This document shows positions 1,321 to 2,243 of a stretch of DNA of 7,671 nucleotides, piece by piece (position 1 is the first letter of the stretch; each line of letters opens with the position of its first letter). A program made the translations under genes and the position numbers. The DNA lies in IMG/VR virus record IMGVR_UViG_2713896785_000018. One strand, written 5' to 3'. The notes below the pieces were generated by a model. That model worked only from the letters and a program-made list of their open reading frames with translations. It was not told the origin of the DNA and searched no databases. Source of the stretch: a virus. Its lineage: Duplodnaviria; Heunggongvirae; Uroviricota; Caudoviricetes.

Positions 1321-1887
1321 TCAAAAAGCAATAACTTTTTTCTCTATACCAAAAGCCATAACCATTGGTTTGTACAAAATAAATTCTGCCACCTTTAGCC
1401 AATGCTCAATGCGTCTTTCACAGGTTCTTAAACTCCATTCCGGATGTGCATCATTCAGCAATTCAGCCATTTTGCGCTTAGTCATCCCCCGCCCCACATA
1501 ACGCTGACTCAGAACATTGAGCAGCCCGGGATAACCTGCCAGTACTTCACCAATAACCCTGTCGATTATTAACGCCTCTGAATCGGTACAATGTGCCAGC
1601 CAGCTTTTTTGATTGCCGTTGATCATATCCCGCAAAAAAGCCTCAAGTTCAGGTTTGTCCAGACCCGCTTTTTTCATCCTCCGGAGCGCCTCGTTAATTG
1701 CCGTTTTTGTCAGCTTTTTAGAGGTCAGTAATTGGTTGAACATATTTCCCGTCTTACCGTCGCCAATATACGACCAACGCCCCCACATACGCAGTTTCCC
1801 CTGGATCCAGACACTTTCCAGCGTTTTCAGGCGTAAATGCTCACCGCTTTTGCCTGTAATTTCCGGGTATATCATATTTATGCTCAC
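1321..1887 (-). CDS. putative late-gene antitermination protein Q-like (188 aa from GTG 1887; alternative ATG at 1875)
   Basis: Intact ORF immediately downstream of rusA, with the GTG start overlapping the rusA TGA (GTGA), and followed by a strong intrinsic terminator: the canonical nin-rusA-Q-tR' position. The family call is positional plus a weak recollection of Q-like sequences, not a motif match. Confidence 0.5.
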   Translation of the reverse strand: MSINMIYPEITGKSGEHLRLKTLESVWIQGKLRMWGRWSYIGDGKTGNMFNQLLTSKKLTKTAINEALRRMKKAGLDKPELEAFLRDMINGNQKSWLAHCTDSEALIIDRVIGEVLAGYPGLLNVLSQRYVGRGMTKRKMAELLNDAHPEWSLRTCERRIEHWLKVAEFILYKPMVMAFGIEKKVIAF

Positions 1888-2243
1888 TCACTTTCAATTT
1901 TGTAAATCTTCACGCCCAGCCGCCCACCAGAAACGAGCTGGCCGCGCACAATATTGATTTCATCAAACTGCTCGTCGTCTATGAGAAGTCCGGCATGCGT
2001 CAGCACATCCAGTGGTGCTTTCAGGATATTGTCCAGGTCACGACGGCGCTTATCCGGTGGCTCTGCAATAATCTTTATCGCCAGCCTTCCGGACAGGTTT
2101 AATTTCAGCCGCTGCTGGCGAACAATAAGTGCCACATCCCGGCGATAACGCTCACCGGCTTTTGATACAAAATATGTGCTGCCACGACGTCACCAGTAGG
2201 TGTTCACCGTCGGCGGGTAAGGCAAAACAAACTCTATACGCAT
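1884..2243 (-). pseudogene. rusA: Holliday-junction resolvase RusA with an in-frame TGA at codon 18 (2190-2192)
   Basis: Translation from ATG 2243 (SD AGAGG 7 nt upstream) gives MRIEFVLPYPPTVNTYW*RRGSTYFVSKAGERYRRDVALIVRQQRL...PDKRRRDLDN...LIDDEQ...GGRLGVKIYKIESE. This aligns along its length with E. coli RusA ([23 protein letters not shown]...DRRRRDLDN...WLDDAQ...KGGRLELTI). The TGA falls where homologues have Arg/His, consistent with a CGA to TGA change. The ORF track splits the gene into 2190..2699 (tail) and 1884..2135. Confidence 0.8.

Follow-up and report, generated by a model that had tools for sequence, protein, structure and literature searches.

A known counterpart of the gene considered here is rusA of prophage DLP12 in Escherichia coli K-12. 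It remains quiescent unless IS2 or IS10 inserts upstream; once switched on in this way, it suppresses ruv mutations (PMC1636454). Macmaster et al. proposed that the loop formed by residues 15-28 of the protein inserts at the centre of the junction, where N15, R16 and R19 may be the residues that recognise bases (PMC1636454).

The window analysed here, that is, the whole stretch of 7,671 nucleotides of the IMG/VR record IMGVR_UViG_2713896785_000018 (Caudoviricetes), contains a rusA gene of the same family as the K-12 protein (structures 1Q8R, 2H8C, 2H8E). The two align without gaps, the Asp/Lys motif of the catalytic site is conserved between them, and K-12 RusA has Arg (R19) at the position that is mutated in the window. 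However, rusA of K-12 is an intact coding sequence that is transcriptionally quiescent, whereas rusA of the window is a broken coding sequence situated in a different prophage, between different neighbours. The first-pass annotation of this DNA referred to the K-12 gene as cryptic, in need of activation and having a phenotype in ruv mutants. The DLP12 copy does behave in this way (PMC1636454), but the remark carries over only loosely, as the window contains a different prophage copy, one of several paralogues. The coding sequence is broken, the prophage is a different one, and genomes of this kind also contain intact paralogues; suppression of ruv by this particular copy is therefore unlikely to be seen unless the copy is isolated.

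The rusA reading frame

Translation of the minus strand from 2243 to 1884 yields a 120-codon RusA frame that runs from ATG to a terminal TGA and reads MRIEFVLPYPPTVNTYW*RRGSTYFVSKAGERYRRDVALIVRQQRLKLNLSGRLAIKIIAEPPDKRRRDLDNILKAPLDVLTHAGLLIDDEQFDEINIVRGQLVSGGRLGVKIYKIESE*. Inside the frame there is a single stop, the TGA of codon 18 (2192..2190, minus strand), followed by C. The gene (1884..2243, minus strand) thus has 119 sense-codon positions, interrupted at codon 18, and the terminal TGA. With Arg restored at codon 18, the protein matches the Pfam RusA model PF05866 over positions 1-123 of 124 (59.9 bits at a cut-off of 22.8) and aligns gap-free with the K-12 structures 1Q8R and 2H8C (residues 5-116, E = 1.6e-22). 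The near-full Pfam match and the ungapped K-12 alignment agree with the initial description of a RusA conserved end to end in a single frame, and the translation bears out the in-frame TGA reported at positions 2190-2192.

All catalytic residues are kept: D70, D72, K76 and D90/D91 of K-12 RusA correspond to D69, D71, K75 and D89/D90 in the window. The first three lie in the stretch DLDNILK (codons 69-75; 2019..2039, minus strand), and the last two are the intact DD of codons 89-90 (1974..1979, minus strand), the equivalences being taken from the 1Q8R alignment and the roles from the published work (PMC1636454). The motifs RRRDLDN (codons 66-72) and DDEQ (codons 89-92), which had been noticed at first reading, are both found; D70, D72 and D90/D91 have their counterparts within them, and K75 is just past the first motif.

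In the ungapped structure-sequence alignment, codon 18 pairs with R19 of K-12 RusA. The lost residue sits in the flexible loop 15-28, which has been proposed to probe the centre of the junction (PMC1636454). Homologues had been said to encode Arg or His at this codon. Arg is indeed present in the near homologues and in K-12 (R19), but His is not: in K-12 RusA it is the next residue.

The start codon ATG (2243..2241) and a Shine-Dalgarno-like AGAGG (2254..2250) together occupy 2241..2254 on the minus strand, directly adjacent to a run of Ns. The same ATG is annotated in the intact homologue from strain PV15-279 and in strain 2013C-3264, both described below. Since intact homologues are annotated from this ATG, and since the residues before the stop are covered by the Pfam model as well as by the structure of K-12 RusA, the suggestion that the true start might lie past the TGA does not hold. 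An uninterrupted coding sequence of about 120 codons, able to yield a dimer-forming polypeptide, is not present, the frame being broken by the TGA at codon 18. As judged from its translation, rusA of the window is a pseudogene of the RusA family and not a functional member.

Closest alleles

A search for rusA in 5,426 complete E. coli genomes retrieved related copies in 3,239 of them, and none of the 5,426 contains a 100% match to rusA of the window. The best match (99.7% identity over 371 bp) comes from E. coli O103:H25 strain 2013C-3264 and has the same T. The interrupted allele is already known: the locus MJ68_RS07450 of this strain (NZ_CP027544.1, 1305753-1306112) is annotated by NCBI PGAP as a RusA family pseudogene with an internal stop, and is flagged as such in RefSeq. 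It resembles the window in having the same TGA in the same codon, DUF968 upstream and the DUF1133/Q-like gene downstream.

The next matches, at 99.5%, are intact genes, for example WP_001217447.1 of E. coli O157:H7 PV15-279. This protein is encoded in lambdoid prophages of EHEC, and its length, start codon and gene context are as in rusA of the window. Unlike the latter, it has CGA (Arg) at codon 18 and is a full 119-aa protein. The window and this nearest intact allele differ at 2 of 371 aligned bases. As PV15-279 has CGA where both the window and 2013C-3264 have TGA, the stop is a single C-to-T transition in CGA, and the DNA alignment thus supports the transition from CGA to TGA that had been postulated at first reading.

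The similarity to 2013C-3264 extends far beyond the gene. Window segments 1043-2254, 2305-2616, 2667-5393 and 5444-7671 differ from this genome at two bases only, 2005 and 7465, and therefore the TGA allele is shared by descent. A further IMG/VR contig, L045, matches 2013C-3264 without a single difference over 3,755 bp. In the phage collection, a near-identical record was not found, the best match being 92.7% identical.

The only other difference in the gene is codon 80 (2004..2006, minus strand), which is GTG (Val) in the window and GCG (Ala) in both MJ68_RS07450 and PV15-279. The substitution A80V was considered as a second decay mutation and rejected, as Val is common in intact or unflagged copies of rusA. 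Indeed, the 55-mer with Val-80 is found in 508 complete genomes, in features that carry a RusA annotation, with no pseudogene flag among the ten matches listed, and Val-80 is also found in the intact IMG/VR copies L032 and L095. By this distribution, Val-80 is a standing polymorphism and not a private lesion. The haplotype of the window is otherwise of the 2013C-3264 type, and Val-80 is frequent in a different group of rusA paralogues (508 genomes). As to the origin of Val-80 in the window, the data point to gene conversion over a short patch, a C-to-T change that arose independently or a mix-up of paralogues in the assembly.

Frequency of the TGA allele

The two alleles were counted with 55-mers centred on the variable base; each 28-base megablast seed spans this base, and thus the queries are allele-specific. 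In the 5,426 complete E. coli genomes, the C-allele 55-mer is found at 2,740 places in 1,034 genomes, and the T-allele 55-mer in one genome, that of 2013C-3264. A pattern with N at the variable site matched at least 120 contigs of IMG/VR, and among the 120 matches listed a single one, the isolate-derived contig L045, has the T allele. The T-allele 41-mer CCGACGGTGAACACCTACTGGTGACGTCGTGGCAGCACATA was not found in a scan of the metagenome collection. Thus T in one genome against C in 1,034, together with the IMG/VR and metagenome scans, identifies the T allele as derived and rare. An exact-pattern scan of GTDB species representatives found neither allele of a 56-mer.

Recent inactivation, one of the options offered by the first-pass annotation, is supported by these observations: a derived and rare TGA resides on a haplotype nearly identical to intact copies and is already registered as a pseudogene in RefSeq. 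Strain 2013C-3264 is a clinical O103:H25 isolate (PMC7285328). The T allele probably marks a narrow lineage around O103:H25, and could be used as a marker of this narrow E. coli clade related to 2013C-3264.

Genomic context

By its gene content the window represents the early-right (nin-like) part of a lambdoid EHEC prophage. On the minus strand, the order of genes is DnaC-like ATPase, DUF1627, small ORFs, DUF551, hok/sok, a YgiW/YdeI-family gene, a small ORF, DUF968, rusA, the DUF1133/Q-like gene, a small ORF and an AraC-type HTH gene; the annotation of the homologous locus in 2013C-3264 and the Pfam scans agree on this order. In 2013C-3264, genes for tRNA-Ile and tRNA-Arg are situated just outside the point corresponding to window position 1. 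The annotation of the homologous locus treats every gene around rusA as intact; rusA alone is disrupted in the stretch, which fits a recent event.

Immediately upstream of rusA is the gene of a DUF968 (HNH-like) protein (2255..3202, minus strand, coordinates mapped from 2013C-3264; Pfam DUF968, E = 2.7e-77). Its 3' end and stop codon fall within a run of Ns (2255-2304), and a second run (2617-2666) is internal to it. As the first run hides the DUF968 stop codon, the ORF listing contains a spurious 169-aa ORF (2190..2699) that takes in codons 1-17 of rusA; this candidate was discarded as an artefact of reading through Ns. Annotation of the region thus calls for caution, as the N run upstream of rusA yields a spurious fused ORF.

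The gene downstream of rusA encodes a DUF1133/Q-like antiterminator (1321..1875, minus strand; Pfam DUF1133, E = 3.4e-105, Phage_antitermQ, E = 5.4e-08), in agreement with the annotation of the homologous locus. It starts 8 nt past the stop codon of rusA, and has only a weak Shine-Dalgarno-like sequence, GAG.

Decay of related rusA copies

The extent of decay was surveyed in 116 usable copies of this rusA group, taken from the IMG/VR matches listed. Proteins of 119, 123 or 124 amino acids are encoded by 106 of the 116 copies, and two more extend past the normal end. The remaining eight copies (about 7%) are disabled at five different places, by at least five independent lesions. These are the stop at codon 18 (L045), Q101* (L047, L071 and L121), frameshifts near codons 35 and 48 (L076 and L093), and truncation or rearrangement after approximately codon 78 (L021 and L107). 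Thus rusA copies in EHEC prophages decay repeatedly, and the codon-18 stop is one more data point.

The gene is also redundant. The genome of 2013C-3264, with about 16 predicted intact prophages (PMC6986202), has six rusA-like places according to the complete-genome search. The evidence for an intact paralogue comes from the IMG genome in which the TGA contig L045 is found: its contig L037 encodes an intact paralogue of 123 amino acids. It is on this copy, and not on the other five places of 2013C-3264, that the statement rests.

Very probably, rusA of the window is a real nonsense pseudogene, of recent origin and restricted to one lineage, and the prophage gene concerned is redundant; neutral decay is the simplest explanation. 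The proposed course of events is as follows. Firstly, a single C-to-T change converted CGA (Arg18) to TGA in one rusA copy, in a lambdoid prophage of an E. coli lineage of the Shiga-toxin type that is related to O103:H25 2013C-3264. Secondly, translation would end after 17 residues; almost the whole protein would be lost, and no functional resolvase dimer would be expected from this copy. The mutation is recent, with the rest of rusA and its neighbours intact, and the allele is confined to a narrow lineage. Finally, neutral decay would be the simplest course, since rusA, a gene silent in the lysogen, has further copies in other prophages of its genome; the RuvABC pathway of the host, assumed to be present, would make rusA dispensable. 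The locus would then be a textbook single-step nonsense pseudogene in a redundant and normally silent prophage gene, that is, a case of ordinary prophage decay of little significance.

Possible effect on the antiterminator gene

The Q-like gene shares a transcription unit with rusA, and the stop could have a polar effect on Q. One alternative is that the nonsense mutation was selected. In such a case translation would be uncoupled approximately 300 nt upstream of the Q-like gene, the level of Q would drop by Rho-dependent polarity or by loss of translational coupling, and this would help to keep the prophage locked in the host. The position of the Q-like start only 8 nt after the rusA stop, with the weak GAG as its Shine-Dalgarno-like sequence, is consistent with this scheme, and so is the recurrence of independent disabling lesions of rusA among related prophages. 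On the other hand, the fraction of broken copies and the scatter of lesions along the gene are what neutral decay predicts. Moreover, lambdoid early-right transcripts are normally antiterminated and hence resistant to Rho, and the TGA allele has not spread past one narrow lineage. Selection for the stop is thus highly improbable.

A comparably small chance may be assigned, jointly, to two further effects of the stop: either the UGA-C is read through at a level of up to a few per cent, giving a trickle of R18W RusA with a changed junction-recognition loop, or the stop lowers the Q-like antiterminator in cis, and the prophage becomes less inducible. If this were true, the 'pseudogene' would take part in prophage domestication, by way of regulation or dosage.

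Sequence quality

The window contains four runs of Ns, 50 each, at 993-1042, 2255-2304, 2617-2666 and 5394-5443. In the closest complete genome they are replaced by 24, 86, 117 and 215 bp, respectively. By this comparison the runs are fixed-length gaps or masks, and not true lengths.

The sequence is therefore gapped or masked, and many near-identical prophage paralogues in a genome can confuse assembly, so that the T at 2192 might be a sequencing or assembly error in a gene that is really intact. A sequencing error was among the options listed in the first-pass annotation. However, the same T on the same haplotype is observed in three records, at least two of which come from separate sequencing efforts and one of which is a complete genome. 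As the same base recurs in the complete genome of 2013C-3264 and in the separate isolate-derived contig L045, an error is very unlikely. Neither could the T have been borrowed by mis-assembly, as none of the more than 2,700 paralogue places offers it. The TGA is thus best taken as a genuine mutation of the prophage.

Possible decoding of the UGA codon

Another possibility is that the UGA serves as a sense codon. It would then specify selenocysteine, or be read through as Trp in a programmed manner or often enough to be useful, and full-length RusA would be made at a low, regulated level. The base after the stop is C, and Poole et al. are said to have described C after UGA, in 1995, as a weak termination context. 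The weak RF2 allele of K-12 is not known to occur in non-K-12 strains. UGA is the most leaky stop codon of E. coli and is decoded mostly as Trp; however, the high read-through in K-12 was tentatively ascribed by the authors to the weak RF2 allele (PMC11126739). Since UGA is mostly read as Trp, any read-through product would be R18W, with Trp in place of the R19 equivalent, a residue proposed to contact the junction bases (PMC1636454).

The remaining observations also stand against decoding. The stop is not conserved among homologues: T is found in one genome, against C in 1,034 genomes (2,740 places), and once among the 120 IMG/VR matches listed. The Rfam scan at gathering thresholds matched only sok in the window, with neither SECIS nor any other family at rusA. 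A stretch of 76 nt beginning just before the stop has a minimum free energy of -22.5 kcal/mol, compared with a mean of -19.6 for shuffled sequences (z = -0.95), and thus no exceptional structure that might stimulate read-through was seen downstream of the UGA. With Rfam blank at the site and folding unexceptional, recoding of the rusA UGA was rejected, and regulated decoding is extremely unlikely. The low-level read-through suggested at first reading thus has no sign of being programmed, although the UGA may be read through accidentally and traces of R18W RusA of full length may arise.

The first in-frame start past the TGA is a GTG at codon 37, which opens a residual ORF of 83 codons (1884..2135, minus strand) in the ORF listing. 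Restart at this codon, with production of an N-truncated but still active RusA of 83 residues, is scarcely credible: the ORF retains all catalytic Asp and Lys residues and passes the Pfam threshold (34 bits at a cut-off of 22.8), but the match covers positions 36-123 only, positions 1-35 with the first, N-terminal strand and the equivalent of the whole loop 15-28 implicated in junction recognition being absent; GGGA, the sole upstream stretch rich in purines, ends 1 nt before the GTG, too near for the usual spacing of a Shine-Dalgarno box, and no gene caller has recorded an 83-aa product in the public assemblies index.

Other features of the window

Relative to 2013C-3264, segment 1-992 contains a mosaic patch of 31 clustered substitutions at 343-770, within the gene of the AraC-type HTH protein (25..738, minus strand). 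The patch has an exact match in none of the fetched loci, the best one being approximately 98% identical. It looks like recombination from another paralogue or an assembly chimera. At 7465, a single G/A difference from 2013C-3264 falls in the gene of the DnaC-like ATP-binding protein (6828..7574, minus strand).

A hok/sok-type toxin-antitoxin module is situated at 4062-4386 (minus strand). It includes a Hok/Gef-family ORF, 51 aa long as annotated in the homologous locus, and an Rfam match to the sok antitoxin RNA at 4212-4386 (113.5 bits, cut-off 59). Between this module and the DUF968 gene, there is a cargo gene of the YgiW/YdeI (NirD/YgiW/YdeI) family of stress-tolerance OB-fold proteins (3598-3942, minus strand), whose product has a signal-peptide-like N-terminus.
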